64,000 bases of DNA from an uncultured Acidobacteriota bacterium (GCA_963741665.1 CAVUIM010000004.1:957122-1021121); one strand, 5' to 3'; counted from the first letter of the stretch, positions 4,343 to 59,253 are shown. Program-made: numbers and translations. Notes: a model not told the origin generated them from the letters alone.

Positions 4343-4417
4343 TGGCTCCTCGGGCTGGATTCGAACCAGCAACCCTCCGGTTAACAGCCGGATGCTCTGC
4401 CGTTGAGCTACCGAGGA
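4343..4417 (-). tRNA. tRNA-Asn (anticodon GTT), CCA encoded
   Basis: Minus-strand cloverleaf: acceptor UCCUCGG/CCGAGGA, D-stem GCUC/GAGC, anticodon stem UCCGG/CCGGA with loop CUGUUAA (GUU), T-arm GCUGG-UUCGAAU-CCAGC, discriminator G, then CCA. Confidence 0.9.
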
Positions 4418-13155: not shown

Positions 13156-13272
13156 GCCCCACCGCAGCCCGGAGGTCCTGCAGCACATCTCAGGAGCTGC
13201 TGAGCGCTGCTGCCTTCCGGCCCTGACGCGGTTCGCAGACTGACATTGCACAGGTTCCGGGCCGCGGTGCGG
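13156..13272 (-). ncRNA. ffs: signal recognition particle RNA (small bacterial 4.5S-type SRP RNA)
   Basis: The minus strand reads ...GUCAGGGCCGGAAGGCAGCAGC...GAUGUGCUGCAGG..., matching the conserved SRP RNA domain IV motif (E. coli GUCAGGUCCGGAAGGAAGCAGC ... GGAUGUAGCUGGCAGG). The termini CACCGCGGCCCGG / CCGGGCUGCGGUG form a 13-bp closing helix. The position immediately upstream of dnaX is the classical ffs location. Confidence 0.7.
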
Positions 13273-40282: not shown

Positions 40283-42470
40283 AGGTGAGCCGGACGAAGC
40301 CGGCGTGGGCCGTGTAGGGACGATAGAGATAGCCGAGCAGCAGCGCGTTGGTGGCAGCCACCGGAGCGCCCTCCTGCACCGGCGGGAACGCGATGCCGGT
40401 GAGGGTCGTCGGTCCGAGCGCGAAATCCTGCACGTTGTAGTCGTCGAACCAGTAGGCGACGCCGAGCCTGAGATTCCGCGACAGCTCGTAGCTCAGGTCG
40501 ATCTCCGAGCGCAGCAGCTCGTTCTTCACGGGCGGCAGCTGCTCGGGCACGGCCAGCGGGGAGCCGGCGACCAGACCGTAGAGATAGGTGTCGTTCGACC
40601 GGTTCCAGTCCACCGAGAGGCGGACGGTCGTCCGCTCGATGGCTTCGGCGATGTCGAGGGCCGCCTCGAGGAAGTGCACCTTGCCGGTGAAATCGGTGGT
40701 CCAGTCGCGGATGGGATTGGCCTGTTCAGCGGCGGAAGTCGCGTTGCGGGATCGCTGGAGGGAACGGTAGCGCTCCCAGCCGTAGCTGGTGGTCAGGCTG
40801 TAGCGATCGTCGGGAACCACACTGACGCCGGCCGAGTACTGATCGGAGTCGAACGACAGCAGGCCGTGGGTGCTGTCGGGATACTCGTCGCGCCCGATGC
40901 CGGCCGAGGCGGTCAAGCCGAAGATGCCCCCCGGCGTCACGTTGGCGATCAGCGTCAACCGCTGCCGGTCGCGATCGGCGATGTCGTAGTGACGCAGCCC
41001 GGCCAGCTCGCCGACTTCTTCCAGGGCCCCGGCCTCGAAGCCGTCGCCCTCGCGCTGCCGGTTCTCGTAGACGCCGCGCAGCATCACGTACTGGTTGCCG
41101 GTGGTGTCGACCGACAGCCGGAAGACATTCTCGGCGGTGCTTTCCCAGATGCGGCTCGTGTAATCGGTACCCAGGTGGCTGAAGCCCACCTTGATCGACG
41201 TCGACGGCACGACCTGGAACGCGCCATCGGCGTCGAACGTCGAACGCTTCACGCTGTGGTACTGCGACGAGCCGGCGACCGCCTGGAAGCTCGAGTCGTA
41301 GGCGACCGTGCCGCCTGGGCGGTCGAAGATTGGCGTCTGCACGTCGACGTCGGCGTAGCGGTACTTCGCGTTGAACGACAGCAGACGGGCCGGCCGGGCA
41401 GCGAAGGTCAGCTGCGCGATGGTCATCTGGTGGGTGGCGTCGGCGGTCGGCCGCGCCAGCGCGATCGGGGCAATCGCGGTGTTGATGGTGAAGGGCAGCA
41501 GATCCTGGTTGCTGCGCCCCTGTCCCACCGCCAGATAGCCGGTCAGCCGCCCGCGCGCCGGCAGAGTCATCGATCCGGTGCCGTGCAGGTAGTTGAGGGT
41601 GTTGCCTGGCCACAGCGCCATCCGCCCCTGTGACGGCGTCGCCGCGAGATCGGGCCCGAAGCGCAGCGGGTTGTCCCAGGTGACGCTCTCGACGGAATTG
41701 TGGAACGCCGAGCCATCCCAGCCGACGCGCAGCAGGCCCCTGGTGTTGGCCCACTCGAGCGCCGTCTGGATGTCGGTGGTCCGCGTATCGATCGGCACCG
41801 GCAACTCGACGGCGTTGTTGAAGCCGAACGTCCCGCCGAACGGAATCGCGCCCTCGCGGGTGGTGTTCCTCACCTTGACCAGCACGTCGGTGGACCGATC
41901 GACGTTGAAGACGATATCGGCCTGGCCGATCTTGCGCAGCGTCCGGACGTCGAAACGAACGGCCTGGTCGTCGAAGTTCCGCAGCGTCTTCGTTCCTGCC
42001 TGGATCTCCTGCTGCAGGCCGTCTTCGAGCCGGAAGACCCCGGCCGACGACGCGGTGTACAGCGTGCGGGTGTCGCGGCTGATGAACATGGGAATCTGAT
42101 CCCACAAGAACGACACCGACAGGCGCCCGACCCGCTGGAAGTCGACCTGATACCGCTGGTCGCGGTAGCCGGCGTTCCACGCCTGGCCTTCGAGGTTCCA
42201 CTCTTCGGTGCGCCGACCGATCAGCGCGTTGTTGCCGTAGATGCCGGGCCGCAAGTCGCGGTAGCGCTGGAATCGAGCCTGGTCGCCGTCGGTTTCGTTC
42301 AACCGGGCGCCGAAGTCGATCGTGCCGTACAGCTTGCCGCTCATCTCGCTGCGGCCGACCTCGACCGGGTCGGTGCGGGCCGGCAGCGTCGGGGGGGTCT
42401 GCGCCGATGCGCTCACTGCGGTGAGCAGGACGAGCGTCGCGGCGGTCGTGAGTGTGTGACGCATGGCCAT
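40272..42470 (-). CDS. MtrB/PioB-family outer-membrane beta-barrel (porin component of a porin-cytochrome conduit), 732 aa
   Basis: ATG at 42470 (RBS GGGAGATGG) lies 6 nt after the decaheme cytochrome stop. It has the signal peptide MAMRHTLTTAATLVLLTAVSASAQ, about 700 aa of alternating Y/W-rich strands and a C-terminal RLTYGW. It is the 3' part of listed ORF 40272..43613. Confidence 0.6.
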   Translation of the reverse strand: MAMRHTLTTAATLVLLTAVSASAQTPPTLPARTDPVEVGRSEMSGKLYGTIDFGARLNETDGDQARFQRYRDLRPGIYGNNALIGRRTEEWNLEGQAWNAGYRDQRYQVDFQRVGRLSVSFLWDQIPMFISRDTRTLYTASSAGVFRLEDGLQQEIQAGTKTLRNFDDQAVRFDVRTLRKIGQADIVFNVDRSTDVLVKVRNTTREGAIPFGGTFGFNNAVELPVPIDTRTTDIQTALEWANTRGLLRVGWDGSAFHNSVESVTWDNPLRFGPDLAATPSQGRMALWPGNTLNYLHGTGSMTLPARGRLTGYLAVGQGRSNQDLLPFTINTAIAPIALARPTADATHQMTIAQLTFAARPARLLSFNAKYRYADVDVQTPIFDRPGGTVAYDSSFQAVAGSSQYHSVKRSTFDADGAFQVVPSTSIKVGFSHLGTDYTSRIWESTAENVFRLSVDTTGNQYVMLRGVYENRQREGDGFEAGALEEVGELAGLRHYDIADRDRQRLTLIANVTPGGIFGLTASAGIGRDEYPDSTHGLLSFDSDQYSAGVSVVPDDRYSLTTSYGWERYRSLQRSRNATSAAEQANPIRDWTTDFTGKVHFLEAALDIAEAIERTTVRLSVDWNRSNDTYLYGLVAGSPLAVPEQLPPVKNELLRSEIDLSYELSRNLRLGVAYWFDDYNVQDFALGPTTLTGIAFPPVQEGAPVAATNALLLGYLYRPYTAHAGFVRLTYGW

Positions 42471-42475
42471 CTCCC

Positions 42476-43454
42476 CTACTGCCGCAGGAAGGTCGCGCCC
42501 GCGGGGTGATTGGACCCATGGATGGCCGCGTGACAGGTCACGCAGCTGCGACTGAACAGCCGGTTGCTGGTCTGCAGGACTCGGTTGTCGTAGATCGTCG
42601 AGGGGTGGCGCGTGTGATTGTGGCAGCGCTGACAGAGGAACGGCAGCTTGGCCACCAGCATGCGATCGTTGTTCGAGCCGTGCGGGTCGTGACAGGTCGC
42701 GCAGCTCTCGCCGTTGATCCCGGCGTGCTCGAACAGGAACGGGCCGCGCTTCTCGGCGTGGCAGCTCGCGCACGACTCGTTGACGGTGTTGCCGGCCTTG
42801 AGCAGGCGCACGTTGGTCGAGCCGTGCGGGTTGTGACACGACGTGCATTCCATCTTGCCCTCGCGCACCGGCATGTGTCCCGAGCGGTCGAGCTTCGCCA
42901 CCTTGTCGCGATGGCAGGTCATGCACTGCTGCTGCTGATTGACTGCTTTGAGCTGCGAACTCCGCCGACTTGGGCTTGTGGACGCTGTGGCAGCTCACGC
43001 ACGAGACGTTGCGCGATTCATGCTGACTGCCTTTCCACAGCGCATGGGTGCCGCGGTTGTGGCAGGTGACGCAGGTGTCGGTCACCTCACTGGCGGCGAT
43101 CCGGTCGAACTGGCGGGGCTTGACCTTCTCGGGATCGCTGGCGTGGGCCTCCCCCGGCCCGTGGCAGCTTTCGCACCCCTGCGCGGCCCAGGGCGATCGC
43201 GGGTCCTTCGCTTGACCGTGTTTGGTGGCCTTGATCGACGCCTCGTAGCCTTCGTGGCAGGTGGCGCAAGCCTCGGCGCCGATATACCCAGGCTGGGGGG
43301 TGGCCGGCGCCGTCTGTGCGGCGGGGGGGGCGGCCGGGCCGTCGCTGGACGGCGGCGGCGCGACCGCCGCGGTCTTGACCGCGGTCGCGGCCAGAGTGCC
43401 GGCGAACAGCAACGCGGCCGCGACGTTCAACAACGTGACGGAGCGTAGTCTCAC
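42476..43454 (-). pseudogene. MtrA/PioA-like periplasmic decaheme c-type cytochrome (about 326 aa, 10 CxxCH); 1-nt frame change near 42925-42940
   Basis: GTG start at 43454 (RBS AAAGAGG) gives MRLRSVTLLNVAAALLFAG signal, then CATCH, CESCH, CVTCH, CVSCH in one frame. After a CAG-run the +1 frame continues QQQCMTCH, CTSCH, CASCH, CATCH, CQRCH, CVTCH (ORF 42476..42922). Confidence 0.6.
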
Positions 43455-43477
43455 GATCGGCCTCTTTCGCGAATCCA

Positions 43478-43816
43478 CTACACCTTCTTCTTGGCGGCGA
43501 GAAACGTGACCAAGGCGTCCAGATCCTCCTTGGGCAAGCTGGGAAAAGCCCGCATTGCCGGTTTCCTGATGGCTTTCGCCGCCGCCGCCATGTCGGCCGG
43601 CGTGACGATCCACTTGCGGATGTCGTCGGCGCTGAGTTTGGTCCCGACCCCGTCGAGCGGCCCCTTCGCGTTGCCCTGGCCGTCAAGCGAATGGCATAGC
43701 GAGCACCGCTGGGCGGCGAACACCGCTGCGCCCTTGTCCTGGGCCCGCGCGTCAGCCACCGGGGCAGCCAACCACATCAGCGCGACTACCCCGCCCACTC
43801 GAAGGATGCCAGTCAT
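43478..43816 (-). CDS. monoheme class-I cytochrome c, secreted (112 aa)
   Basis: ATG at 43816 (RBS GGAGG) gives signal MTGILRVGGVVALMWLAAPVADA, the heme site CSLCH, and a distal Met region. Confidence 0.75.
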   Translation of the reverse strand: MTGILRVGGVVALMWLAAPVADARAQDKGAAVFAAQRCSLCHSLDGQGNAKGPLDGVGTKLSADDIRKWIVTPADMAAAAKAIRKPAMRAFPSLPKEDLDALVTFLAAKKKV

Positions 43817-44028: not shown

Positions 44029-46968
44029 TTAGAACTCGAACTGCAGCGACAACTGCGCCGCACGGGCGGCCTGGCGGTTCTGCCCGCGGAACGTGCCGTC
44101 GGGCGCGTAGGCGAAAGCTGCACTGCCGATCAGGTTGCTGCCGGTATTGACCCCGTCGCCGCCCAGGAATTCCTGCAACGCGTCGCGGTTGGTGATGTTC
44201 AGCACGCTGAGGGCGATATCGAGCTTCCGGCCGCCGAGCGCGAACCGCCGGCCGACGCGCGCGTTCCACTGCGCCAGGCTGGGCGCCTGCCGCTGCCCCT
44301 CGCCGCGCGTGGCGTACGCGAACCGGACGGTCGTCGCCAAGGGGTTCGACACGGTCCGCCCGTTCGACAGGACCAGCGTCGGCGGACCGAACTGCGGGTC
44401 GGGCGCTGCCAGGAGGGTAACGATCGGGCCGGTGTACGGTCCCGAGAAGACGTTCAGGTTGCTGGAGAGCGTGAGCCCCCACGGTGCGTTGTACGAGCCG
44501 GCGAGACGCAGCGCGTGCTTGATCCACATCGGGTTGCGCGACAGCGACGTGCCCGACAGGCTGTTGTTTTCGCCGCCACGGATCGAGCCGATGCCGCGAT
44601 TGTTGGCGAACGCCGTGGTTTGGATGAACGCCGCCGGGTCGTTCGGTTGCCACGTCCCGTCGAGGTGCTGGAAGCCGCGCGTGTAGCCGACGATGAACTG
44701 CGAACGGCCCGTCCGCTGAGCGCCGATGACCTCCACCCCCGTGTAGATCGGCGTGTTCCACACGTTGTTGGTCTGGAGCAGGATGGCGTTCTGGGACTCG
44801 TCCGCGTAGCCGCGAAACACGCCGTCCGTATAGATGCCGTTGACGTCGATCTGGGCGGGCATGTCCTTGTAAGCACGCCGGATGAAGGTCGCGTCCAGGC
44901 TGATCTGGCCGGGCAGCTGGCGCCGATAGCCGAGCAGGATCTCGTCGGTGAACGGCTGATGCCGGTCCGGATCGACGCGCCGGTTGGCCGCCACCTGGGT
45001 CTGGGCGGGCGTCACCAGCACGGTCGCAAAGCTCCCGTCGCCACGGGTGTCGTAGGTGTCGGTCGTCGTCACCGTGACGCCACCCCCGAAGAAGCCACCC
45101 CCCAAGGTCGGCAGGTACAGCCACTCCGGCTTGGCGGCAAGGCGGCTGAAGCTCCCGTGGACGATGTTCCGGCTGTCGGCCGTCACGGCGTAGACCGCAC
45201 CCACCCGCGGGCCGACCTCCAGACTCGACTGCGTCCGCACGCCGAACAGGTCGTCATCGTCGACCACGCGCTCGACGCGCAGACCACCGACGAGGGTCAA
45301 TCGCGGCACCGGCTTCCAGGCGTCCTGGACGTAGACGGCGTAGTTCTGGGAATTTCTCTTTTCAGTGGTGAATACCAACCGGGTTGGATCGACGAACTGA
45401 CGATGGAAGGGGATGTAGCCCGAGAACGGATCTCCCGGGACGCGCAGTCGAACATCCTCGAGGGTGAAGCCGCCATTCAGGTAGTTCGCTTCGGTGCTCA
45501 ACCGCATCACCGGCTGGAGAAAAGCCCCCGCCTGGAACTCATGAGAGCCCAACCAGCCCGCGCGGTACCAGTTCACGTCGGCCTGCACGGTGAGCTTGCT
45601 CGACGGCGTGACGTTGAAGCTCTGGTTGTTGCCAACAGTGGCGACCAGGCCGTTGCCGACCAGCCGTCCCGCCGACGTGGCGACCGAGTCGTAGATGCGC
45701 ACCCGCGGGCCGCCGTAGTCGAGGCCCTTGAAGGCCGCGAGCGACGTTCTGCCGCCGAACGTGTTGAACGAGGCGCCGACGGTCGTCGTCAGCGTGTTGG
45801 TCCACGCCGAGAAGAGCCGTGCGGCGGCGCCGTTGCCCGTCGTGCCGCTGTTGCTGAAGCGGCGGCTGTCCGTGGACGCACTGGGCTCCTCGAAGCCGTG
45901 CGGTTTCAGGAAGAATCCGTGCAGCTGATGTCGAGCGCGCAGCTGGGCGTTGACCTTGACGAATCCCGTATGGTGCCGGCTGCGGTTGTCGAACGGCTCC
46001 CACCCGGGGATCGACCCTCGGAGGTTGTTCAACTGGGTCGGGGTGCGTGAGATCTGACTGTTGCGGTGGAGGTAGAAATACGACGCGAAGAACCACGCGC
46101 GATCGCGCCGAATCGGCCCGCCAAGCGCTGCCTCGAGGTCCGTGGTTTCGGCAATCGCCGGCACACCGAGCGGGTCGTTGTCGGCGTTCCAGCCGCGATT
46201 CTGATGATGGACTCCTGCCGACCCTGCCAGCCGGTTGGTCCCGACCCTCGTCGTCACGTTGAACACCACGCCCAGCCCCGCCGGCGCCGACGCATCGGCA
46301 CCGCCGGTCCGCACCTGGGAATCCGCGATGGCGTTGGTGGGAAGCCTGACGATCTCCATGCGTCCTTGACGGGACGACGCCATGTCGGCGCCGTCGATCA
46401 GCACCACGTGCTGCTCGACATCGGTGCCGCGCAGCATGTAGGTCTGGGTGCCGTTGTTGGCAATGAGGTTGCGGGCCGTCACCCCCGGAGTCACCTCGAG
46501 AGCGTCGGTGAGGTCGCGTCGGGTCGACAGCGGCAGCAGGCGCTGGAAATCGCCGGCGACGTTGACGGCCTGAATCGGCTTGTGCGATTCGAGCAATGGC
46601 GGCGCGCCGCTGACGACGATGGTCTCTTCGACGCTGCCGACCGCAAGGACGATGTCGAGGGTGAGGTTGAGCCCGGCCCGGACCTCGACGCGTTGCTGCG
46701 CATACTTGGTGAAACCCGCCAGCTCGGCGACGACGTCGAAGACGGCGGGCGGCAGGTTCAGGAGGCGATAGGTGCCGTCGGACTCGGTGACACTGACATG
46801 CGTGCCCGGGATGGTCGCGCTCACCGCGGTCACAGTGACCCCGGGCAGCACCCCGCCGCCAGCGTCGCGGACCACACCCCGCACCGTGCCTTCACTGGCG
46901 ATCTGCGCGTCCACGGGTCCCGCCGTCAGGAACACCAGCACGGCCACCACGCTGAGGCGTCGGCGCAT
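44029..46968 (-). CDS. TonB-dependent receptor with carboxypeptidase-regulatory-like N-terminal domain (979 aa)
   Basis: ATG at 46968 (RBS GGAGGGAG) gives MRRRLSVVAVLVFLTAGPVDAQ. CarboxypepD_reg-like GTVRGVVRDAGGGVLPGVTVTAVSATIPGTHVSVTESDGTYRLLNLP, plug, and a C-terminal LSLQFEF. Confidence 0.85.
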   Translation of the reverse strand: MRRRLSVVAVLVFLTAGPVDAQIASEGTVRGVVRDAGGGVLPGVTVTAVSATIPGTHVSVTESDGTYRLLNLPPAVFDVVAELAGFTKYAQQRVEVRAGLNLTLDIVLAVGSVEETIVVSGAPPLLESHKPIQAVNVAGDFQRLLPLSTRRDLTDALEVTPGVTARNLIANNGTQTYMLRGTDVEQHVVLIDGADMASSRQGRMEIVRLPTNAIADSQVRTGGADASAPAGLGVVFNVTTRVGTNRLAGSAGVHHQNRGWNADNDPLGVPAIAETTDLEAALGGPIRRDRAWFFASYFYLHRNSQISRTPTQLNNLRGSIPGWEPFDNRSRHHTGFVKVNAQLRARHQLHGFFLKPHGFEEPSASTDSRRFSNSGTTGNGAAARLFSAWTNTLTTTVGASFNTFGGRTSLAAFKGLDYGGPRVRIYDSVATSAGRLVGNGLVATVGNNQSFNVTPSSKLTVQADVNWYRAGWLGSHEFQAGAFLQPVMRLSTEANYLNGGFTLEDVRLRVPGDPFSGYIPFHRQFVDPTRLVFTTEKRNSQNYAVYVQDAWKPVPRLTLVGGLRVERVVDDDDLFGVRTQSSLEVGPRVGAVYAVTADSRNIVHGSFSRLAAKPEWLYLPTLGGGFFGGGVTVTTTDTYDTRGDGSFATVLVTPAQTQVAANRRVDPDRHQPFTDEILLGYRRQLPGQISLDATFIRRAYKDMPAQIDVNGIYTDGVFRGYADESQNAILLQTNNVWNTPIYTGVEVIGAQRTGRSQFIVGYTRGFQHLDGTWQPNDPAAFIQTTAFANNRGIGSIRGGENNSLSGTSLSRNPMWIKHALRLAGSYNAPWGLTLSSNLNVFSGPYTGPIVTLLAAPDPQFGPPTLVLSNGRTVSNPLATTVRFAYATRGEGQRQAPSLAQWNARVGRRFALGGRKLDIALSVLNITNRDALQEFLGGDGVNTGSNLIGSAAFAYAPDGTFRGQNRQAARAAQLSLQFEF

Positions 46969-47191
46969 CGTCACTCCCTCCTGTGGCAGACGTCGATCCA
47001 GGAACACAGCCAGATCGCCGGGGCCACCTCGCGTTGGGCCGATCACGGCCACGGGACGGCTGGACAGAGGCGGGCGCAGTATAGTCGACCGGCCTCGGCC
47101 AATGGAGGTGATGCGACGCACGCAGGTTCTACGGAAATAGGCGCAGAAGCCGGCCGGGAGCTATCAGTCGAAGAAACGGCGAAGCTCACGT

Positions 47192-47833
47192 ATGATGACG
47201 CCATCGGCGACCATGCCTGAGCGCATGAGCACGAGCGACACGGCTCCAGACGACGTCAGCGCGCTGCTTCGGGCATGGACCGCAGGCGACCAGCAGGCGC
47301 TCGCCCGGCTCACCCCGATCGTCTACGGCGAGCTCCACCGTCTGGCGCACTACTACCTGAAGCGCGAGCGGGCCGGCCACAGCCTGCAGACGACCGCGCT
47401 CGTCAACGAAGCCTATCTGCGGCTGGTCGACTACAAGCGCATGCAGTGGCAGAACCGGGCGCATTTCATGGCGGCGGCGGCGCAGGCCATCCGCCGCATC
47501 CTCGTCGATCACGCGCGGCGGCGCAACGCCAAGCGGGGCGCGAACGCACCGCATGTCTCGCTCGATGCCGAGGCGCTGCTCTGCCCCGATCGCTGCGACG
47601 ACTTCGGGTTCCTGGACGACGCCCTGAACGCCCTGGCGGCGCGGGCGCCGCGCAAGGCGAAGGTCGTCGAGCTGCGCTTCTTCGGCGGCCTGAGTGTCGA
47701 GGACACCGCCGACGTGCTGCGCGTCTCGCCGATCACCGTGATGCGCGAGTGGAAGAGCGCCAAGGCCTGGCTGTACCGCGAGCTGACCGGCGAGGATGGC
47801 AATGGACGGCGACCGCTGGCACCAGGTCGATAG
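47192..47833 (+). CDS. ECF-type RNA polymerase sigma factor (of the class found next to Ser/Thr kinases)
   Basis: Region 2 ([38 protein letters not shown]) and region 4 HTH ([28 protein letters not shown]). The 3' end overlaps the kinase start by 38 nt. Confidence 0.8.
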
Positions 47834-50831
47834 GCTGCTGCAGTCCGCCCTCGACGTTCCCCCGGCGGAGCGCGATGTCTTTCTACGGAACGCCTGCGGC
47901 GGCGACGGTCCGCTCGAACGCGACGTCCGCTCGCTGCTCGCTGCACACGACCGTGCCGACGGATTCCTCGACGCCCCGGCGATCGACCTTGCCGCGCGGG
48001 GGCTCGCCGGCGAGCCGGACGCCAAGGACGGCCGGGCCGCCCCGTCGACTTCGCTCAGGGCAAGCGGCGATCCGCTGATCGGCCAGACGTTCTCGCACTA
48101 CCGCATCGTCGGCAGGCTCGGCGGCGGCGGGATGGGCGTGGTCTACAAAGCCGAGGATGGGCGGCTGCACCGTCCTGTGGCGCTGAAGTTCGTCGCCGGC
48201 GATCTGGCGAGTGACGCCGAGGCCCTGAGCCGCTTTCAGCGTGAAGCACGCACCGCCTCGGCACTCAACCATCCACACATCTGCACCATCTACGACATCG
48301 GCGAGCAGAACGGACGCGCGTTCATCGCCATGGAGTATCTCGAAGGCGAGACGCTGAAGGATCGACTCGCAGCCGGTCCCCTTGCACTCGAGACGGTGCT
48401 GCGGCTCGGGGTCCAGATCGCCGACGCCCTCGACGTCGCTCACAGCGCGAACATCATCCACCGCGACATCAAGCCGGCGAACATATTCATCACCGCGCGC
48501 GGGCATGCCAAGCTCCTCGACTTCGGTCTGGCGAAGCTGGGCCCAGCCATCTCACCCCAGGCAGACGTCACGACCGCGGCCGGGACGATGCAGGGTGTCG
48601 TGATGGGCACGGTCGCCTACATGGCGCCTGAGCAGGCGCGCGGCGGGACGGTCGATCACCGCGCCGACCTCTACAGCGTCGGCCTGGTGCTGTACGAAAT
48701 GGCCATGGGCACGCGGCCGGCACCTGCCGTTCAGCTGCGGGTCGAGCACTCGCCCGATCTGGAACGCGTCATCTCGAAGTGCCTGGAGACGGATCCCCAG
48801 CTTCGGTATCGGCACGCCGCCGACCTGCGCACCGATCTCGGGCGCCTGACGAGTGGACCGAGCTCAGCGGCCGCCACCACACCTCAGGGGCCCGGTCGGA
48901 TGCGCCGGTACCTCGTCGTGGCTGCCGGCCTGGCCGCGGCAGTCTTCGTCGGCGCCTACGTCTTCGCGCCGCGGGCGGCGACGCTGACCGACAAGGACAC
49001 CCTCGTGCTCGCCGAATTCGCCAACACGACCGGCGACCCGGTATTCGATGGCACGCTACGCCAGGGGCTCGCGGCCCAGCTCCAGCAGTCTCCGTTTCTC
49101 AGCCTGGTGTCGGACGCGCGCATCGTGAAGACGCTGGCGCTGATGCAGCAGCCGCCGGACGCGCGGCTGACGCCGGAGATCGCCCACGGTGTGTGCGCCC
49201 GGACTGCCAGCGCCGTGGTGCTCGATGGATCGATCGGCAGCCTGGGTAGTCAGTACATCCTCTCCCTGCGGGCGAGAAACTGCTCCACCGGCGACATTCT
49301 CGCCGACGAGCAGGCGCAGGTCGCGCGCAAGGAGGATGTTCTTGGCTCCCTGAGTGAGATGGCCACCCAGGTCCGTGAGCGGCTCGGCGAATCGGTCGCC
49401 ACCATCGAGAAATACTCCAGACCGCTGCAGGAAGCGACCACGGCGTCCCTGGACGCCTTGAAAGCCTTCACCACCGCCAGGCAGGTGTACGGGTCATCCG
49501 GCCGTGGGCGGGCCCAACCGCTGTTCGAGCGTGCCATCGCGCTCGACCCCGACTTCGCGCTCGCGCATGCCCAGCTCGGGATCTTCTACAGCAACGAGGG
49601 CGAGTCGGCGCTGTCGCGGCAGAGCACGATCAAGGCGTATCAGTTGCGTCATCGCGCCAGCGACGCCGAGCGATTTTTCATCGAGACGGTGTACGACCGG
49701 CAGGTGACCGGCAACATGGACCGGGAGATGGAGACGCTGGACGCGTGGGCGCAGAGCTACCCGCGCGATAGCATTCCGCACGGATTGCTGGCCGGCTTCG
49801 CCACGCGGAGCACCGGCCGATACGAGGAGTCGGTCGCCGCGGCCGACCGGTCGATGGCACGTGATCCCGAGGGTGGCTCCGCCGCTTCGACCAACAGCAA
49901 GGCGTACGCGGAACTTCACCTGAATCGACTGGACGCGGTCGAAGCGACCATCCGTCGGGCCGAAGAGCTCAAGCTGGACTCTGAGTTTGCCGTGATTCGC
50001 TACTTCATCGCGTTCTTGCACGGCGATGGCGAGGGCGTGGCCCAGCAGGCCGCGAAGGCTCGAGCCAGCCGCTCGACCGAAGACTTGATCTCGCATCTCG
50101 AAGCGCTGCGCCTGGCGGGCGCCGCCCGGCTCCAGGATGCCAGGCGGACATCCGCGACTGCCGCCGCCATCGCGAAGCAGTCTCGCAAACTCGAACGGGC
50201 GGCGTTATTCGAATCGGCCACCGCGGTGTGGGAGGCGCTCTACGGCAATCAGGCGGCAGCCCGACAGAAGGCCACCGAGACGCTCGCGCTCGGCCGGGGC
50301 CGCGAGGTCGACTATGCGGCCGCCTTCGCGCTGGCCGTGTCCGGTGACGTGTCACGGGCGCGCGCGCTCGCCGACCAGCTGGCCCGCGACTATCCGGAGG
50401 ACACGTCGGTGCAGTTCATGTACCTGCCGACGCTTCGCGCCCTGTTCGCCCTGGAGGCCCGTGATGCGGCAGCGGCGATTCGGTCGATGGAGACGGCCTC
50501 CCGCTTCGATCTCGCCCTGGGCGGCATCGGCTTCAACGCGCATTTCGGCAAGCTGTATCCGATCTACGTTCGCGGTCTGGCCTACCTGGCGGCGCGGCAG
50601 CCGGCACAGGCCGCCGCCGAGTTCCAGCGGATCGTCGAACATCGCGGCATCGTCCTCGTCGATCCCATCGACGCGTTTGCACGCCTGCAGCTGGCGCGGG
50701 CGCTGGCGCTCGCCGGCGACCCCGCGAAGGCGAAGCTCGTCTACGGCGACCTCTTCACGCTGTGGAAGGACGCCGACCCGGAACTGACGGTCCTCAGGGA
50801 GGCGCGGTCGGAGCACGCGCGACTGCCGTGA
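47796..50831 (+). CDS. Ser/Thr protein kinase - single TM - periplasmic domain - TPR repeats (paralog 1, 1011 aa)
   Basis: Hanks motifs [30 protein letters not shown] and APEQ. TM at [23 protein letters not shown]-terminal TPRs. Confidence 0.9.
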
Positions 50832-50833
50832 GC

Positions 50834-53800
50834 ATGCCGACACCGCCGCAACCCGGCCGATCGCCGAGGGACACCGAGCGCTGGACCCGCGTCGACCGGC
50901 TGCTGCAATCCGCGCTCGACGTTCCCGCGGCCGAGCGCGACGGCTATCTTCGCGACGCCTGCGGCGGCGACCGCGGCCTGGAAGGCGACGTCCGGTCGCT
51001 GCTCGCCGCCCACGACCGTGCCGACGGGTTCCTCGCCGCGCCGGCGATCGATCTCGCCGCACGCGCGCTGGCCGGCGGGCGCAGCGCCGACGGCCGCCCC
51101 GGCGCCGGCGATCCGTTGATCGGTCAGAAGCTCTCGCACTATCGGGTCGTCGAGCGGCTCGGTGGCGGCGGGATGGGCGTGGTCTACAGGGCCGAGGACT
51201 CGCGGCTGCACCGTCCCGTGGCGCTCAAGTTCGTCACCGACGACCTGGCGAGTGACGCCGAGGCCCTGAGCCGCTTCCAGCGGGAAGCGCGCACCGCGTC
51301 GGCACTCAACCATCCCCACATCTGCACCATCTACGACATCGGCGAGCAGGACGGACGCGCGTTCATCGCCATGGAGTATCTCGAGGGCGCGACGCTGAAG
51401 GACCGACTGTCGTCTGGTCCCCTCGCACTCGGGACGGTGCTGCGCCTTGGCATCCAGATCGCCGACGCCCTCGACGCCGCCCACAGCGCGAACATCGTCC
51501 ACCGCGACATCAAACCGGCGAACATCTTCATCACCTCGCGCGGGCACGCCAAGCTCCTCGACTTCGGCCTCGCCAGGAGTGGGCCGGCCGCACCGCATGC
51601 GGATCTGACCACGATGGCCCGCACGCGCCCGGGCGTCGTCATGGGCACCGTCGCCTACATGGCGCCGGAGCAGGCCCGGGGCGACGCCGTGGATCACCGC
51701 GCAGACATCTGGAGCTTCGGCCTGGTGCTGTACGAGATGGCCAGGGGCACGCGGCCGGCGCCGGGCGTCCAGCTGCGCATCGAGGATGCTCCCGAGCTGG
51801 AACGCGTCGTGTCGAAGTGCCTGGAGACGGATCCAGGTCTCCGCTATCAGCACGCCGCCGACCTGCGCGCCGATCTCGAGCGCCTGACGAGCGGATCGAG
51901 CCCGGTGGTCGCCAGTGGACCTCCGGTGCCCAGTCGGACGCGCGGGCGCCTCGTCGTGGCTGCCGGCCTGGCCGCGGCCGTCCTCGTCGGCGCGTACGTC
52001 TTCGCGCCTCGGGCGGCGACGCTGACCGACAAGGACACGATCGTCCTCGCCGAGTTCACCAACACGACCGGCGATCCGGTGTTCGACGACACGCTGCGCC
52101 AGGGTCTGGCGGTGCAGCTCCAGCAGTCGCCGTTCCTGAGCCTCATCTCGGATCAACGTATCCGCGGGACCTTGGCGTTGATGAATCAACCGGCGGAGGC
52201 CAGGCTGACTCCCGAGGTCGCCCGGGGCGTCTGCGTCCGAACTGGCAGCGCGGCGGTACTCGAAGGCTCAATCGCGACGCTCGGCAGCCAGTACGTTCTC
52301 GGCCTGCGCGCGACGCAGTGCACGACCGGCGACGTCCTCGCCGACGAGCAGGCACAAGCGGCCCGGAAAGAAGAGGTCCTGAACACCCTCAGTCAGATTG
52401 CCACGCGCTTCCGAACGAGGGTCGGGGAATCGCTCGCTACCATCGAGAAACATTCGACGCCTCTCGCGGCAGCGACGACGCCCTCGCTCGAAGCGCTGCA
52501 GGCCTTCAGCGCCGGACACGACCTGGCGGATTTCAGCTGGGACAGACGGCTGCCCCACTACCAGCGCGCGATCGCCATCGATCCCGAGTTCGCCCTGGCT
52601 CATGCGCAAGTCGGGTTCGGCTACAGCACGCTGGGCGAGTCGGCGCTGGGGCGACAGAGCCTGCAGAAAGCCTACGAGCTGCGCCATCGCGCCAGCGACG
52701 TCGAGCGCCTCAACATCGAAACGCTGTACGACCGCGATGTCACCGGCAACCTGGAGCGCGAACGACGGACACTGGAGACGTGGGCCGAAAGCTATCCCCG
52801 CGACGCGCGAGCCCGTTCGTTGATGGCCGGCCTGGCGCTGACCAGCACCGGACAACACGAGCTGGCGATCGCCAAGAGCGAAGAAACCCTGGCTTTGGAC
52901 CCGGACTCGACCCCCACCTATGGCAGCAAGGCATTCAACGAACTGTTCCTCAATCGCCTCGACGATGCGCTGCTGACCGTCCGTCGGGCCGCCGAGCGTA
53001 AGCTGCAATCGCCCGATCTGCGGTTGATTCCATATGCCGTCGCTTTCTTGAAGGGGGACGACGAGGAACTCGAACGAACCGGTACGGCCGCCAGGAACAG
53101 CCGCGGCCTCGACGATCTGATTCCGCAGTTGGAAGCCCTTGCCCTGGCTCGGTCCGGCCGCCTGCAGGACGCGAGACGAACGTCCACGGTCCCGGTTGAG
53201 CTCGCGGAGCGCTCGGGTCGTCGCGAGCGGGCCGCCCTGTTCGAGGCAGGCCGAGCCGTGTGGGAGGCGTTCTACGGCAATGCGCCCGCCGCCCGACAGA
53301 GCGCCAGCAAGGCGCTGGCGCTCGGAAAAGGCCGCAACGTCGACTACGCCACGGCGTTCGCGCTCGCCCTTTCAGATCGTCTGCCGCAGGCGCGCGCCCT
53401 CGCTGAGGATCTCGCCCGCGAGTATCCGGAGGATACGTTCGTTCAGTTCATGTATCTGCCGACGCTCCGGGCCCTGTTTTCGCTGAACGCCGGCGATCCG
53501 GCCGCAGCCATTCAGGCGCTGCAGGTCGCCTCGCGCTACGACCTCCATACCGGAGGCGTCGGCTTCATTCAGCGCTTCGGCGCCCTGTACCCGATCTACG
53601 TGCGCGGGGTTGCCTACCTCGCGGCCCGGCAGCCCGCCGCAGCCGCCGCCGAGTTCCAGCGGATTCTCGATCACCGGAGCATCGTCCTGTTCGATCCGAT
53701 GGACGCGCTGGCGCGCCTGCAGCTGGCACGAGCGCTCGCGCTGGCCGGCGACACGGCGAAGGCAAAGAGTGCCTACAGCGATCTCTTCACTCTGTGGAAG

Positions 53801-53863
53801 GACGCCGACCCGGACCTTCCGGTTCTCACGGACGCTCGGGCCGAATACGCACGACTGCCGTAA
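50834..53863 (+). CDS. Ser/Thr protein kinase - TM - TPR (paralog 2, about 1009 aa)
   Basis: Same architecture, 3 nt after the paralog 1 stop. ATG at 50834 ([30 protein letters not shown]). The listed ORF begins upstream at 50762. Confidence 0.9.
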
Positions 53864-53905
53864 GCGTGGCGAGGTCGATGCACACACCGCCGTGGCGACC
53901 GCGGC

Positions 53906-54442
53906 CTACTGGAACGGCTCGAATTGGATGCGAACGAAGTTGGCGCTGCCCGTGCGCGACCCCACCACAACACCTTGCAGATCGATGGTTTCCACCGTCG
54001 CCATCGCGCTGGCGCTATCGCGGTCATCGCCCAGCGTCATCTCGAGGCGGAGCCTGTTGTAGCGAAGCGGCTGGGCCGTGTTGACGTCGTAGAAGAGATC
54101 CCACAGCGTCACGCCGAACCGCCCTTTGCCAAGGTAGCGCCAGACGCCATGGGCCGCGGTGTGTGGCGGACGTGCGGGGTCGGTGCTGACTTCGCCTGGC
54201 ACCGAGCGGAGGACGGTGCCATCGGCATGGAACGTGATGAGTTGTCTGATGCCGGTGGCGGTGGTGCCAAACCAGGAGCCGACGATGCCCCACGGTTGCC
54301 CCGGCTTGCTGTGTTCGTCGCTCCTCGGGTCCTGCCGCTCCTGACTGTGACCAGGTTGCGCGATGGATTGGGCCTGCATCCCGGTCGCCGCGAGCGCGAG
54401 TGTGCCGGTGAGCAGCAGTGTTTCGACGATGTTCTTCACCAT
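53906..54442 (-). CDS. small exported hypothetical protein
   Basis: ATG at 54442 gives MVKNIVETLLLTGTLALAATGMQAQS signal. About 178 aa with no recognisable motifs. Confidence 0.4.
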   Translation of the reverse strand: MVKNIVETLLLTGTLALAATGMQAQSIAQPGHSQERQDPRSDEHSKPGQPWGIVGSWFGTTATGIRQLITFHADGTVLRSVPGEVSTDPARPPHTAAHGVWRYLGKGRFGVTLWDLFYDVNTAQPLRYNRLRLEMTLGDDRDSASAMATVETIDLQGVVVGSRTGSANFVRIQFEPFQ

Positions 54443-54479
54443 ATGGATAGCTCCTTCGCCCGGCCATTCCACCAGCCTC

Positions 54480-54611
54480 GGGCTCTACCGAAATAGGCGC
54501 AGAACCCCGGGAAGAGCTATCAGGCGAAGAAACGGAGAAGACCGATATAATGCCGCGTGCGCGAGTCGAGAAGCGCCAATGCCTGGCTGTATCGCGAGTT
54601 GACCGGCGAGG
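54480..54611 (+). repeat. relic of a second ECF-sigma gene copy: duplicated promoter-proximal block plus the last about 70 nt of the sigma ORF, with the body deleted
   Basis: 54483-54545 (CTACCGAAATAGGCGCAGAA...GAGCTATCAGGCGAAGAAACGGAGAAG) parallels 47118-47185. 54547-54611 parallels 47745-47795 (the sigma 3' end ...CGCGAGTTGACCGGCGAGGATGGCAATG). Confidence 0.7.
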
Positions 54612-57600
54612 ATGGCAATGGACGGCGACCGCTGGAACCAGGTCGATAAGCTGTTGCAGTCCGCGCTCGACGTTCCCCCGGCGGAGCGCGATGGCTTTCT
54701 GCGGAACGCTTGCGGGGGCGACGACCCGCTCGAACGCGACGTCCGCTCGCTGCTCGCCGCGCACGACCGTGCCGGCGGGTTCCTCGACGCGCCGGCGATC
54801 GATCTCGCCGCACGCGGGCTGGCCGGCGGGCGCAGCGCCGACGACGGAATGGCCGACCCTTCGACTTCGCTCAGGGCAGGCGGCGATCCGCTGATCGGTC
54901 AGACGCTCTCGCACTATCGGGTGGTCGAGCGGCTCGGCGGCGGCGGGATGGGCGTCGTGTACAAGGCCGAGGACTCGCGGCTGCACCGTCCCGTGGCGCT
55001 GAAGTTCGTCACCGACGATCTGGCAAGTGATGCCGAGGCACTGAGCCGGTTTCAGCGTGAAGCGCGCGCCGCCTCGGCGCTCAACCATCCACACATCTGC
55101 ACCATCCACGACATCGGCGAGCAGGACGGGCGGCCGTTCATCGTCATGGAGTACCTGGAGGGCACGACCCTGAAGGACCGGCTCGCGGCCGGTCCGCTCG
55201 GACTCCCTACGGTGCTGCGCCTTGGCATCCAGATCGCCGACGCCCTCGACGCCGCCCACAGCGCGAACATCGTCCACCGCGACATCAAACCGGCGAACAT
55301 CTTCATCAGCGCGCGTGGTCACGCCAAGCTCCTCGACTTCGGCCTGGCGAAGATGGGTGCGCCGACGCCGCGCGAGGCCTATGTCACGACAGCCGCCGGG
55401 ACGCTCCAAGGCGTCGTGATGGGCACGGTCGCCTACATGGCGCCCGAGCAGGCGCGCGGCGAGCCGGTCGATCATCGCGCCGACCTCTACAGCGTCGGCC
55501 TGGTGTTGTACGAGATGGCCAGGGGCACGCGGCCGGCGCCGGGCGTCCAGCTGCGGATCGAGGATTCCCCGGAACTGCAACGCGTCGTCGCGAAGTGCCT
55601 GGAGACGGATCCGGGGCTCCGCTATCAACACGCCGCCGACCTGCGCGTCGACCTCGAGCGTCTGACGAGCGGATCGAGCCCGGTGGCCGCCAGTGGACCT
55701 CCGGTGCCCAGTCGGACACGCGGGCGCCTCGTCGTGGCTGCCGGTCTGGCCGCGGCCGTCCTCGTCGGCGCGTACGTCTTCGCGCCTCGGGCGGCGACGC
55801 TGACCGACAAGGACACGATCGTCCTCGCCGAGTTCACCAACACGACCGGCGATCCGGTGTTCGACGACACCTTGCAACAGGGACTGATGGTGCAGCTGCA
55901 GCAGTCGCCGTTCCTGAGCTTCGTCTCCGATCAGCGCATCCGCCGCACGTTGCCGTTGATGAACCAGCCAACGAATGCACGATTGACTCCTGACATTGCT
56001 CGCGGCGTGTGCGTCCGGACCGGCAGCGCGGCAGTTCTGGAAGGGTCGATCGCCGCGCTCGGAAGTCAGTATGTCCTTGGCCTGCGGGCGACGGCCTGCA
56101 CGACCGGCGACGTCCTGGCCGACGAGCAGGCACAGGCGCCACGGAAAGAGGATGTCCTGAGCGCACTCAGTCAGATGGCGACCCGCTTTCGAACCCGCGT
56201 TGGAGAATCGCTCGCCACGATCGAGCAACATTCGCGGCCGCTCGCGGAAGCGACGACTCCGTCGCTCGACGCGCTGCAGGCCTACACCGCCGCGTTGAAG
56301 GAATTCGACCGGGCCCGGCGACTGCCGTTCCTGCAACGGGCGGTCGCCCTCGATCCCGAGTTTGCGGTGGCCCACGCGCAACTGGGGTTCGCTCTCGGCA
56401 ACCTGGGAGAGGCGGCGCAGGGACGGGACAGCCTGGTCAAGGCGTACCAGCTGCGACAGCGAGCCAGCGACCTCGAGCGCTTCTCCATCGAGACCTTTTA
56501 CGACCGCGACGTCACCGGCAATCTCGAACGGGAACGACGGACATTGGAGACGTGGGCGCAGCACTATCCTCGCGATCCATCCCCTCACACACTGCTAGCG
56601 GGTCTGGCCCTGACCAGCACCGGCCAGCACGAGCTGGCGATTGCCGAAACCGACAAGGCCATTGCGCTGGATCCCGACTGGACACCGGCGTATGGCAACA
56701 AGGCGTTCAATCAGCTCTACCTGAATCGCCCCGACGATGCCTTGGTGACGGTCGCTCGGGCGAGGGAGCGCAAACTGGAACCCGCCAACTTTCTGCTGGT
56801 TCCCTATTTCGTCGCCTTCTTGAAGGGCGATCAGGAGGAACTCGCACGGTCGGCGACGGCAGCCCGGAAGGGCCCCGAGTTGGTCGACTTCATGCCGCAT
56901 CTGGAGTCGCTGACGCTGGCTCGCTCGGGGCGCCTGCAGGACGCACGACGGATGTCCGCGGTGCTCGTCGAGGTTGCGCAACAGTCGGGTCGGCGCGAAC
57001 GGGCCGGCTTGTTCGAAGCTGGCAGAGCCGTGTGGGAAGCGTTTTACGGCAATGCGGCCGCCGCCAGCCAGAGCGCCAGCAAGGCGCTCGCGCTCGACCG
57101 GGACCGCAACGTCGATTATGCCGCGGCATTCGCGCTCGCCCTCGCGGGCGGTGTGCCGCAATCGCGAGCCCTCGCCGAAGACCTCGCCCGCGAGTTCCCA
57201 GAGGATACGTTCGTTCAGTTCATGTATTTGCCGACGCTTCGTGCCTTGTTCGCATTGAACGCTCACGATCCAGCCGGGGCCATCCAGGCGTTGCAGGTCG
57301 CCTCCCGCTATGACCTTCATACGCGTGGCGTCAGCTACATCGGACGCTTTGGCGCCCTGTACCCGATCTACGTTCGCGGACTGGCGTACCTCGCGTCACG
57401 TCAACCCGCCGAGGCCGTCGGAGAATTCCAGCGGATTCTCGATCATCGAAGCGTCGTCCTCATGGATCCCATGGACGCGTTGGCGAGACTGCAGCTGGCG
57501 CGAGCGCTCGCGCTCACTGGCGACACGGCGAAGGCGAAGAACGCCTACAGCGATCTCTTCACGTTGTGGAAGGACGCCGATTCGGACCTTCCGCTTCTCA

Positions 57601-57635
57601 GGGACGCCCGGGCGGAGTTCGCGCGACTGCCGTGA
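54612..57635 (+). CDS. Ser/Thr protein kinase - TM - TPR (paralog 3, 1007 aa)
   Basis: N-terminus [43 protein letters not shown] is near-identical to paralog 1, with the same Hanks motifs. Confidence 0.9.
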
Positions 57636-57685
57636 GCGCTGGCCAACCACCGCCGCGTCGAGTTCATCAAGAGGTAGCGGGCGCC

Positions 57686-59253
57686 ATGAACATGAGGACG
57701 ATGCTCGCCGCCGCCGTCTGGTTGCTGGCGGCGGCAGGACTCATCGCGCAGAGTCAGCTCGCGCCGCTCGGCCTCACCGAGACCGCTGCCCGGACCTTCG
57801 TGCTCAACGACATCAAGGGACCGGCAGCGGATCGCGGCGCCGAGATCGAGGTCGCCGGCACGCGCGCCTTTCTCACGCTCCCGCCCGCCGCGCGCGGCCC
57901 GGCAGCCACCGCCCTGTTCGCCTGGGTGAAGGCGTACGTGAGCTCCCCGGCGTTCATCAACAGCTACAACGCGTACCGCAACGGTCGCCTGCCAACCCCG
58001 CGACATTACGCGCTCTCGGTCGACGCCCAGGTGAAGAAGGACATCGCCGAGCAGCTCGCCGGGTTTGAACAGATGCGGCTTGCCGCCGACAAGATGCCGC
58101 CCCAGGACCGCGACATGCTCATGGAGCAGGTCAAGCCGGCACTCGCCAACCTGACCAATCCTGCCTACGCCGACACGCTCAGAGCGCAGTTGACGGCCGA
58201 GCGTGCGCAGGAGACCGGGCTCGGACCCGAGATTGCCCTGGAGGTCGAGAAGACGACGCCGGCCGATCCAGGGATGCTGTTCTCGCGGCGTTTACGAGAG
58301 TTCCTGACCGCGACCGCGGACGTGAATTTCTCGGCGCGGACTGGCCCCAATCCCGCAGCAGATGCGCTCGGCCTCGGACACAACCAGCCCGTCGACCCCT
58401 TCACGCTGTATCCGATTCCACACCTGACCGGCGTCGTGACCGCCGTGGTCGGTGCCGCAGCCTGCCATGCGGTTCTCGCCAACGGTCAGGTGTTCTCGTG
58501 GGGTGTCGGGCCATACGGCACTCTTGGCACGACGCCGCTCGACGAGTTGGTGACACGGGTGGAGCCACACTTCCGTTCGAATACGCCGGTGCCCGTGGCC
58601 GCGACGTTCGACGCGGTGGACGTGTCCTCGCTGGGCGAGCACGTGCTGGCGCTCGCGCGCGATGGCAGCGTCCATGCCTGGGGTCGCGGCGACGCCGGTC
58701 AGCTCGGCATCGGCGGGCTGCCGATGGTCAACTACAGGGGCCGGTCGTCGCGCGTCGAGAACTTCGTGTCGTACCCCGCGCGCATTCCCGGCCTCACCGA
58801 TGTCGTCGCGATCAGTGCCGGCAAAGGGCACTCGCTGGCGCTGCTGAAGGACGGCACCGTGCGCGCGTCATGGCCTGGGGCAACACCCACGGCAGCAGCG
58901 ATCCTCGCCCGGTGCCGGCGGCGGTCGTCGGCGCGCGCGGCCGTCGCTCGGTCGTCGGTGGAGACGCTCACGTCGTGGCGATCACTCACACCGGCGGGGT
59001 CATGACCTGGGGCACGTCCGGTCACTACGAGACCGGCCGCGGCCGGAACGCGAGCGCACCGGGGCTCGTCAAGGAGCTCACCGGCGTGGTGTCTGTCGCT
59101 GCCTCGGCGTGGGGCAGCGCCGCAGTCCTGGCGTCGGGACGAATCATGGCGTGGTCCGAGGTGCGGCCGTGGCACCGGCCGGGTTACAACGGCACCAACA
59201 ATCTCAGTCCGACGCCGATCCTGTTGTGGCTCGATGGACTCGAGCAGCCGTGA
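57686..59253 (+). pseudogene. secreted RCC1-repeat (regulator of chromosome condensation-like beta-propeller) protein; 1-nt frame change near 58860-58870
   Basis: Signal MNMRTMLAAAVWLLAAAGLIAQ. RCC1-like repeats (VHAWGRGDAGQLGIGG, GHSLALLKDGTVRA) in the first frame, then (V)MAWGNTHGSS...VMTWGTSGHYETGRG...IMAWSE in the +1 frame (ORF 58498..59253). Confidence 0.55.

Follow-up and report, generated by a model that had tools for sequence, protein, structure and literature searches.

How can three sensor kinases be matched to a single sigma factor? The question is raised by a locus in a 64 kb window (~69% G+C; all coordinates are counted in this window) from an uncultured Acidobacteriota bacterium, in which one gene for a sigma factor of the extracytoplasmic function (ECF) type is followed by three genes for Hanks-type serine/threonine kinases, here named K1, K2 and K3. 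A reading made from the DNA alone, referred to as the sequence-only reading, had described a tandem triplication of ~1000 amino acid (aa) proteins with a kinase domain, one transmembrane (TM) segment and tetratricopeptide repeats (TPRs), and had proposed their common N-terminal extension as a candidate docking region for the sigma factor. Here we report a computational follow-up based on open reading frame (ORF) calling and translation, pairwise protein alignment, Pfam and NCBIfam searches, and tblastn and blastn across the whole window. The interpretation that we favour, with a probability of roughly 0.7, is an ECF43-type sigma factor activated by phosphorylation and served by three membrane sensor kinases with an N-terminal module that probably recognises it. 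The main value of the locus lies in the comparative evidence for the extension as a sigma-matched module.

The genes and modules concerned are the following:

47192-47833, plus strand: ECF43-type sigma factor (PF07638, TIGR02999, QTTA instead of DAED)
47796-50831, plus strand: K1, sensor type A (extension, Hanks kinase, TM segment, periplasmic two-Cys domain, TPRs)
47805-48008, plus strand: K1 N-terminal extension, three-helix module (AlphaFold2; homology to PknS residues 8-68)
50834-53863, plus strand: K2, sensor type B (architecture as K1)
50870-51073, plus strand: K2 N-terminal extension (sequence alignment)
54612-57635, plus strand: K3, sensor type B (5' end including the extension K1-like, remainder K2-like)
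54621-54824, plus strand: K3 N-terminal extension (93% identical to the K1 extension)

The kinases measure 1011 aa (K1), 1009 aa (K2) and 1007 aa (K3). The ORFs, the Pfam and NCBIfam matches and tblastn bear out the claim of three such paralogs behind an ECF sigma gene, and tblastn over the whole window returned exactly three kinases and one sigma factor, with only a short sigma remnant beyond these. As had also been stated, K1 overlaps the 3' end of the sigma gene (by 38 nt, or 32 nt with the second ATG as K1 start) and K2 follows immediately, its ATG at 50834 lying 2 nt past the K1 stop. K1 and K2 are probably co-transcribed. K3 is separated from K2 by a spacer of 748 bp (53864-54611).

The sigma factor and its assignment to ECF43

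The sigma protein matched Pfam PF07638 (Sigma70_ECF; 3.4e-47, residues 20-199) and NCBIfam TIGR02999 (203.2 bits, cut-off 126.15), two models that we take to correspond to ECF43; by these family models it is an ECF sigma factor with sigma-2 and sigma-4 only. Ordinary ECF sigma factors bind the beta-prime subunit of RNA polymerase through the acidic DAED patch of region 2.2. At this place the window sigma has QTTA (residues 66-69, counted from 47192), and none of the four positions is acidic. A QTTA-type motif in place of the DAED of region 2.2 is the hallmark of ECF43 and its phospho-acceptor site (PMC13147305, PMC8999054). Members of this group are encoded beside a Hanks kinase, with no anti-sigma factor, and a phospho-threonine supplies the negative charge for RNA polymerase binding (PMC13147305, PMC8999054). 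Since QTTA replaces DAED, and by analogy with the studied sigma factors EcfP and EcfK, the window sigma is predicted to be inactive until its putative phospho-acceptor, T68, is phosphorylated.

The genomic neighbourhood agrees with this assignment. The Hanks-type kinase gene K1 overlaps the sigma 3' end, no anti-sigma gene lies beside the sigma gene, and neither the neighbouring proteins nor the extension gave an anti-sigma Pfam match. There is also no space for an anti-sigma gene, because a divergent TonB-dependent-receptor-like gene lies upstream and K1 overlaps downstream; an adjacent canonical anti-sigma gene, which the sequence-only reading had named as evidence against itself, is not present. 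Its proposal of an ECF43-like, phosphorylation-controlled sigma factor fits the two family models, the QTTA motif and the kinase neighbour, and judged by sequence the locus passes every ECF43 feature tested here. To our knowledge, ECF43 is the only sigma group in which activation by direct phosphorylation has been demonstrated, and this in two proteobacteria only.

The closer of these two systems is EcfK-PknS of Xanthomonas citri (PMC13147305; 9EED), in which PknS has been shown experimentally to phosphorylate the ECF43 sigma factor EcfK. It shares with the window the ECF43 signature in region 2.2 and the adjacent kinase gene, and PknS resembles K1-K3 in its N-terminal segment of ~80 aa, Hanks domain, single TM segment and periplasmic TPRs. 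Homology is also detected between the N-terminal segments, for both of which AlphaFold predicts antiparallel helices. The two systems differ in that the window has three kinases per sigma factor and a deleted second sigma copy. Furthermore, PknS is 833 aa long, whereas the window kinases reach ~1,000 aa with a larger periplasmic module that contains a two-Cys alpha/beta-like domain (TIGR04510-like); EcfK has QATE where the window sigma has the consensus QTTA; the output of EcfK-PknS is a type VI secretion system, whereas in the window the only candidates are the genes for a TonB-dependent-receptor-like protein and for a small secreted protein; and the hosts belong to different phyla. In PMC8999054, which summarises Iyer et al. 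2020, EcfP-PknT of Vibrio parahaemolyticus is likewise described with an intrinsically inactive sigma factor that lacks DAED (STTA, compared with QTTA here), an adjacent Hanks kinase, no anti-sigma factor and activation by threonine phosphorylation of EcfP; unlike the window locus, it has a single kinase.

The sigma ORF comprises 213 aa when read from 47192, and M8 (47213) or M12 (47225) are likelier starts. A TATGAT box at 47191-47196, conserved in relatives, overlaps the annotated start (ATGATG at 47192), and the sigma gene of a related locus (L002) has CTG in place of the M8 ATG and retains the M12 ATG; translation therefore probably begins at 47225 (or 47213), for a sigma factor of 202-206 aa. 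The closest homologues, among at least 8,000 matches, are 76-97% identical and come from soil metagenomes and Vicinamibacterales metagenome-assembled genomes (MAGs). The sigma factor of locus L003 is the closest among all loci compared (distance 0.13). The contig of L003 (CAYUAX010000042.1) is labelled 'uncultured Bifidobacteriaceae bacterium', its layout is near-identical to that of Vicinamibacterales loci (sigma-kinase pair, TonB-dependent-receptor neighbour), and it is probably mis-binned.

The N-terminal extension and its association with the sigma factor

In all three kinases the Pkinase domain begins near residue 101 (E 1e-43 to 4e-45), with ~95 residues ahead of it, and the motif quoted in the sequence-only reading for the common extension is present in each. 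Residues 1-100 of K1-K3 gave no Pfam or NCBIfam family match. When compared with PDB sequences, K1 residues 1-100 matched residues 4-69 of PknS (9EED; E=4.6e-4), and a profile of 25 extension sequences returned 9EED residues 8-68 as the sole significant match (E=6.1e-6). The extension is thus a helical segment of ~80 aa that precedes the kinase domain and is homologous to the PknS segment, which was unseen in the crystal and is predicted to form three to four antiparallel helices (PMC13147305). AlphaFold2 with an alignment placed helices at residues 2-16, 20-31 and 35-56 (predicted local distance difference test score, pLDDT, 84.9), a module of ~60 residues and three helices. The single-sequence AlphaFold2 model of K1 residues 1-370 scored poorly as a whole (pLDDT 42), with confidence limited to residues 10-50, and does not inform on how extension and kinase pack. 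The fold is a generic three-helix unit for which no informative structural match was found. Only one Cys is conserved in the extension. Neither K1 residues 1-100 nor 25 diverse extensions matched a Pfam anti-sigma family at E<=10, and HxxxCxxC was not present. We found no published function for the PknS-type N-terminal segment in the literature.

Outside the array the extension is widespread, whereas a lack of conservation elsewhere had been named in the sequence-only reading as evidence against its proposal. A profile built from the three window copies matched at least 22,754 protein clusters (50% identity clusters, E<=1e-3), nearly always at residues 1-70, which together with the PknS homology places its conservation well beyond this locus. 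Nearly all inspected members of at least 300 aa carry Hanks motifs, and the sensors of four full-length members inspected more closely are varied (TPR, TolB-like propeller). Two kinds of apparent exception were rejected: stand-alone 'extension-only' proteins (52-165 aa, some on long contigs) were frameshifted or truncated kinase genes with out-of-frame Arg-rich tails, and candidate sigma-extension fusions, seen as longer 'sigma' matches, were N-terminal over-extensions or frameshift fusions without a clean extension. A protein from outside the window, P0231, is a 1156-aa Hanks kinase with ~10 tandem extension copies (~45-50 aa each) before the kinase domain. The tandem copies indicate that the extension is a unit which is autonomous and can be repeated; P0231 could hold several sigma factors simultaneously if the extension docks them.

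We compared 80 loci, of which 78 came from a one-genome-per-species scan (with a 10-sequence extension subset as query) and two were added; all but one of the 78 are labelled Acidobacteriota (Vicinamibacterales, Bryobacterales, Terriglobales and others). Loci were annotated with hidden Markov models (HMMs) of sigma factor, extension and kinase built in this analysis. A kinase domain follows the extension in 97/97 modules. Directly in front of the extension lies a sigma gene of the same family in 86 of these and another extension-kinase in 7; the remainder comprises 2 modules at contig ends and 2 that lack a sigma gene. Conversely, an extension comes next after 83/83 full-length sigma factors. 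Most pairs of sigma and extension HMM matches abut or slightly overlap, with -2 nt as the most frequent distance. Extension-kinases have a sigma gene upstream in 86/95 cases, whereas extension-less kinases in the same loci have one in 0/11 (Fisher p=6e-10). Among 17 bystander modules, which had not been used for fetching loci, 14 follow a sigma gene and 3 follow a kinase. One sigma gene with two kinases occurs in 7/80 loci (~8%), so the multi-kinase arrangement is not unique to the window, and several soil acidobacterial loci carry two or three sigma-kinase units on one contig. Paralogous sigma-kinase units are common in soil Acidobacteria, and some wire several sensors to one sigma factor.

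Co-variation was assessed from pairwise distance matrices of 66 complete sigma-extension-kinase triplets with the Mantel test. Sigma factor and extension were strongly correlated (r=0.82; this value was reached in 0/2000 permutations), compared with r=0.31 between sigma factor and kinase domain and r=0.30 between extension and kinase domain. The partial correlation of sigma factor and extension given the kinase was 0.80, and none of 200 random 68-column kinase blocks exceeded 0.40 against the sigma factor. When the proteins were split into blocks, the sigma thirds and extension halves formed one module (r 0.52-0.77) and the kinase blocks a second (0.55-0.76), with cross values of -0.06 to 0.41. 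The boundary between the two modules is the short linker between extension and catalytic domain, within one polypeptide. Two readings of this pattern are possible: co-evolution through contact, or a sigma+extension cassette that recombines onto different kinase bodies, as K3 illustrates. Under either, the comparative data point to the extension as the sigma-matched part of the kinase, which falls short of proof of binding. Concerted sigma-extension evolution as a source of the correlation was checked in the five same-genome pairs present, and the pattern was mixed. The suggestion that the extension docks the sigma factor has accordingly gained comparative support from the sigma-adjacent kinases and from the co-variation, although docking itself is unproven.

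We consider it possible, at somewhat less than even odds, that the extension is an unnamed widespread domain with which all ECF43-cognate kinases, from Acidobacteriota to Xanthomonas, recruit their sigma factor as its dedicated role, and that sigma factor and extension together form a portable cassette. If so, the cassette would be re-attached to different kinase and sensor bodies, with the K3 chimera caught mid-process, and this would explain the one-to-one (here three-to-one) sigma specificity of promiscuous Hanks kinases. The PknS segment, of which it had earlier only been remarked that it 'may play a functional role', is now seen to be conserved across phyla.

Kinase history, the second sigma copy and the intergenic motif

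The pairwise comparison that had been suggested gave protein identities of 70% (K1/K2), 71% (K1/K3) and 81% (K2/K3). The Hanks catalytic motifs are complete in all three kinases, including the P-loop and APE. The layout behind the kinase domain is as previously described: a single hydrophobic segment at residues 371-393 in each, two conserved periplasmic cysteines (Cys467, Cys496), and TPR matches at ~575-610 and 920-985. Residues 373-833 align to positions 215-670 of TIGR04510 ('putative peptide modification system cyclase') with 172-176 bits, which is less than the family cut-off (400). The window proteins share the TM, periplasmic and TPR sensor module with TIGR04510 and related TM-TPR sensors, and differ in having a Hanks kinase as output in place of a cyclase.

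In the periplasmic half, K1 shares 62-64% identity with K2 and K3, and 77% with the first of the two kinases that follow the one sigma gene of L004, a Vicinamibacterales MAG. K2 is 73-75% identical in this half to the second kinase of L004 (L004_6846) and to the sole kinase in each of L003 and L006, and K2 and K3 together span 73-79%. On these identities, K1 and K2/K3 are two old sensor types, which are adjacent to each other in the related genome L004 as well. The cytoplasmic halves of K1-K3 are 80-86% identical to one another, compared with 72-77% to their sensor orthologues, and synonymous divergence (dS) is 0.1-0.5 in the cytoplasmic part against 0.6-1.3 in the periplasmic part; the higher identity and lower dS suggest within-genome homogenisation. 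The ratio of nonsynonymous to synonymous divergence (dN/dS) lies at 0.1-0.4 for almost all domains and pairs (K2/K3 overall 0.20), which indicates purifying selection on all three kinase genes. The one sigma factor that remains probably receives different signals from K1 and from K2/K3; the idea of three inputs to one sigma factor would follow from intact genes with diverged sensors.

The remaining features of the locus lie in the intergenic regions and on the opposite strand:

44029-46968, minus strand: divergent TonB-dependent-receptor-like gene (Pfam PF13620, PF07715, PF25183, PF00593); candidate target gene
47137-47166, no strand assigned: conserved intergenic motif, copy 1 (ATAGGCGCAGAA-N12-GCTATCA); candidate promoter or operator
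53906-54442, minus strand: small ORF, 178 aa (AAGGAG ribosome-binding site, signal-peptide-like N-terminus); candidate target gene
54481-54643, plus strand: remnant of second sigma gene (blastn, tblastn, alignments)
54493-54522, no strand assigned: conserved intergenic motif, copy 2 (ATAGGCGCAGAA-N12-GCTATCA)

The K2-K3 spacer preserves traces of a second sigma gene. Positions 54481-54540 are 84% identical to 47125-47184, the region immediately upstream of the sigma gene; 54557-54643 correspond to the sigma 3' end (aa 184-212, the last ~29 codons; 83% identical); and 54558-54700 are 92% identical to the sigma 3' end together with the K1 start. A TATAAT sequence (54546-54551) stands after motif copy 2, as the TATGAT box (47191-47196) does after copy 1. 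On the evidence of the upstream region and the 3' remnant, K3 derives from a second sigma-kinase unit in which ~540 bp of the sigma coding interior was deleted. The first ~150 nt of K3 (to ~54760) are nearer to K1 (84-95% DNA identity), and the sequence beyond is nearer to K2, so that on these alignments K3 is a chimera. The description as a tandem triplication therefore holds for the number of paralogs but not for their history, since K3 is separated by 748 bp and is chimeric, and two old sensor types are present.

The motif is 28 bp long. Its core, AGGCGY-N17-TATCR, has exactly two occurrences in the 64 kb where 0.06 would be expected, one upstream of the sigma gene and one upstream of K3, where TAGGCGCAGAA-N12-CTATCA is retained. 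The strict form is found upstream of 56/80 related sigma genes, with a 17-nt spacer throughout, and most of the remaining ones have a GGATCA variant; with this variant included, 72/85 matches across the 1.36 Mb that the loci cover are placed upstream of a sigma gene. Across the motif from the sigma gene there is usually a secreted HAF-repeat protein (TIGR02913) and, in Vicinamibacterales, a TonB-dependent-receptor-like gene, the latter also in L002, L003, L004 and L006. For the window receptor (44029-46968) the longest ORF reaches 47121 and the signal-peptide-like start is M52; its domains are CarboxypepD_reg, Plug and a beta-barrel. The start of the small ORF at 53906-54442, which is divergent from K3, lies 52 nt from motif copy 2, and its product had no Pfam or NCBIfam match. 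Scans around both upstream regions found no consensus sigma-70 promoter or intrinsic terminator, and Rfam gave no family in the sigma upstream region.

In our estimate the chances are about even that the motif is a regulated promoter or operator region that the sigma operon shares with the divergent genes for secreted or outer-membrane proteins. If it is a regulated promoter region, the genes at 44029-46968 and 53906-54442 would be candidate outputs, and the conserved motif beside genes for secreted and outer-membrane proteins supplies such candidates for sigma-kinase units in general. The motif also precedes secreted-protein genes without an adjacent sigma gene (twice in L042, and in L057 and L059), and in L040 and L066 it has only a right-hand sigma gene.

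Several observations from the related loci concern the same motif. In Acidobacteriaceae and Bryobacterales (L005-L080) the HAF-repeat gene is nearly always divergent from the sigma-kinase pair (TIGR02913, 1e-39 to 1e-43) and starts 20-65 nt from the motif, as in L076 (3040-4374, minus strand) and L007 (7919-9268, minus strand); HAF-repeat gene, sigma gene and kinase gene look like a conserved three-gene module. L042 (3922-7061) has three minus-strand genes in a row that encode secreted proteins of unknown family; the motif stands ~50 nt upstream of each, and the last copy is common to a secreted-protein gene and the divergent sigma-kinase pair. Sigma-kinase units are not alone in having the motif, since in L007 (5564-7806) it precedes a CadC/OmpR-type winged-helix regulator that combines a TM segment with a TolB-N-like domain and TPRs.

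Proposed mechanism, alternatives and neighbouring genes

We propose that in this Vicinamibacterales-like acidobacterium the locus would function as an ECF43-type module of the kind 'sigma activated by phosphorylation'. A periplasmic signal would activate a kinase through its sensor of two-Cys domain and TPRs; the N-terminal module, with a likelihood that we put near one half, would recruit the sigma factor to the activated kinase; and the recruited sigma factor would be phosphorylated by that kinase. K1 (type A) and K2/K3 (type B) differ mainly in the periplasmic part, and K3 is the survivor of the second sigma-kinase unit, keeping its upstream region. As such, the locus is an ordinary member of its class, and normal among the signalling modules of soil Acidobacteria.

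Several points weigh against this proposal. Phosphorylation, binding and the sensed signals are all inferred at this locus. In the Xanthomonas system, PknS(1-364), with the segment included, phosphorylates EcfK, and a segment-less construct was not tested there (PMC13147305). In X. citri, EcfK keeps its function with the T51A change (PMC13147305), so that a switch of a single threonine may be too simple. The sigma-extension correlation may reflect physical linkage and a recombination breakpoint in the linker, as the K3 crossover lies near codon 50. The motif is partly palindromic (GATAG...CTATC) and occurs one-sidedly in L042, L057, L059, L040 and L066, which makes it ambiguous both in orientation and as to whether it is a promoter or an operator.

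The extension could instead be an intramolecular regulator or dimerisation element that makes no contact with the sigma factor, its association with sigma genes being due to common descent and adjacency. Sigma gene and extension are neighbours on the DNA, a crossover within or just after the extension, as in K3, could alone create a sigma+extension block, the generic three-helix fold has no informative structural match, and the ~10 tandem copies of P0231 resemble a scaffold or repeat. However, r is 0.64 between the extension and the N-terminal third of the sigma factor, ~500 nt away, and only 0.25 between the extension and the kinase N-lobe, ~50 nt downstream; linkage should fall off symmetrically, so this asymmetric decay counts against pure linkage. 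The co-variation with its own kinase domain that such a regulator should show is not seen either, and sigma linkage is absent from all 11 kinases of these loci that lack the extension. We therefore regard this explanation as unlikely, though with a real share of the probability. A degenerate anti-sigma domain, through which the kinases sequester the sigma factor and release it on signal, with phosphorylation secondary, has a lower standing and appears improbable. Membrane anti-sigma factors of the RseA, RsiW and RslA type are likewise encoded directly after their sigma factor and have the same topology of N-terminal cytoplasmic helices, one TM segment and a periplasmic sensor, but no sequence similarity to the extension was detected and the fold gave no informative structural match: 25 diverse extensions lack a Pfam anti-sigma match even at E<=10, the profile returns PknS alone from PDB sequences, and the three helices come without the zinc-binding H-x3-C-x2-C. 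The window proteins also have a kinase domain between helices and TM segment, and the studied ECF43 sigma factors are intrinsically inactive, needing activation rather than release, as is predicted for the window sigma.

That K2 and K3, or one of them, are redundant leftovers of duplication, with K3 orphaned by sigma loss and decaying, would agree with the destroyed sigma copy beside K3 and with the 81% identity and common sensor type of K2 and K3. We give this little credence: all three ORFs are full-length with intact catalytic motifs, K2/K3 dN/dS is 0.20 overall, and K3 retains an intact upstream motif and TATAAT box. Sigma-less extension-kinases behind the motif are also found in L023, L064 and L077, and arrays of one sigma gene and two kinases recur in 7/80 loci. 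Cell-surface signalling of the FecA/FecR/FecI type is suggested by the TonB-dependent-receptor-like gene that lies divergently upstream of the sigma gene, here and in related Vicinamibacterales loci, yet we hold it to be very improbable, as a FecR-like gene was not found, the receptor N-terminus is CarboxypepD_reg with no signalling (STN) domain detected, the sigma factor belongs to the PF07638/TIGR02999 family and is not FecI-like, and in other orders the divergent partner is the HAF-repeat secreted protein. [quoted passage not shown]

Other genes of the window lie on either side of the locus. Directly 3' of K3, 57683-59005 (plus strand) encodes an RCC1-repeat protein with a signal-peptide-like start (PF00415, 4e-18). 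The only Rfam matches above the gathering score in the window are tRNA and bacterial small signal recognition particle RNA (4346-4417 and 13164-13262, minus strand). On the other side, 40272-43613 (minus strand) encodes an MtrB/PioB-type outer-membrane porin (PF11854, 1.3e-76), and the same long ORF has multihaem CXXCH cytochrome motifs and an Arg-rich, out-of-frame-looking stretch ahead of the porin. The probable arrangement is an MtrA/PioA-like cytochrome gene with the porin gene behind it, i.e. an extracellular electron-transfer module.

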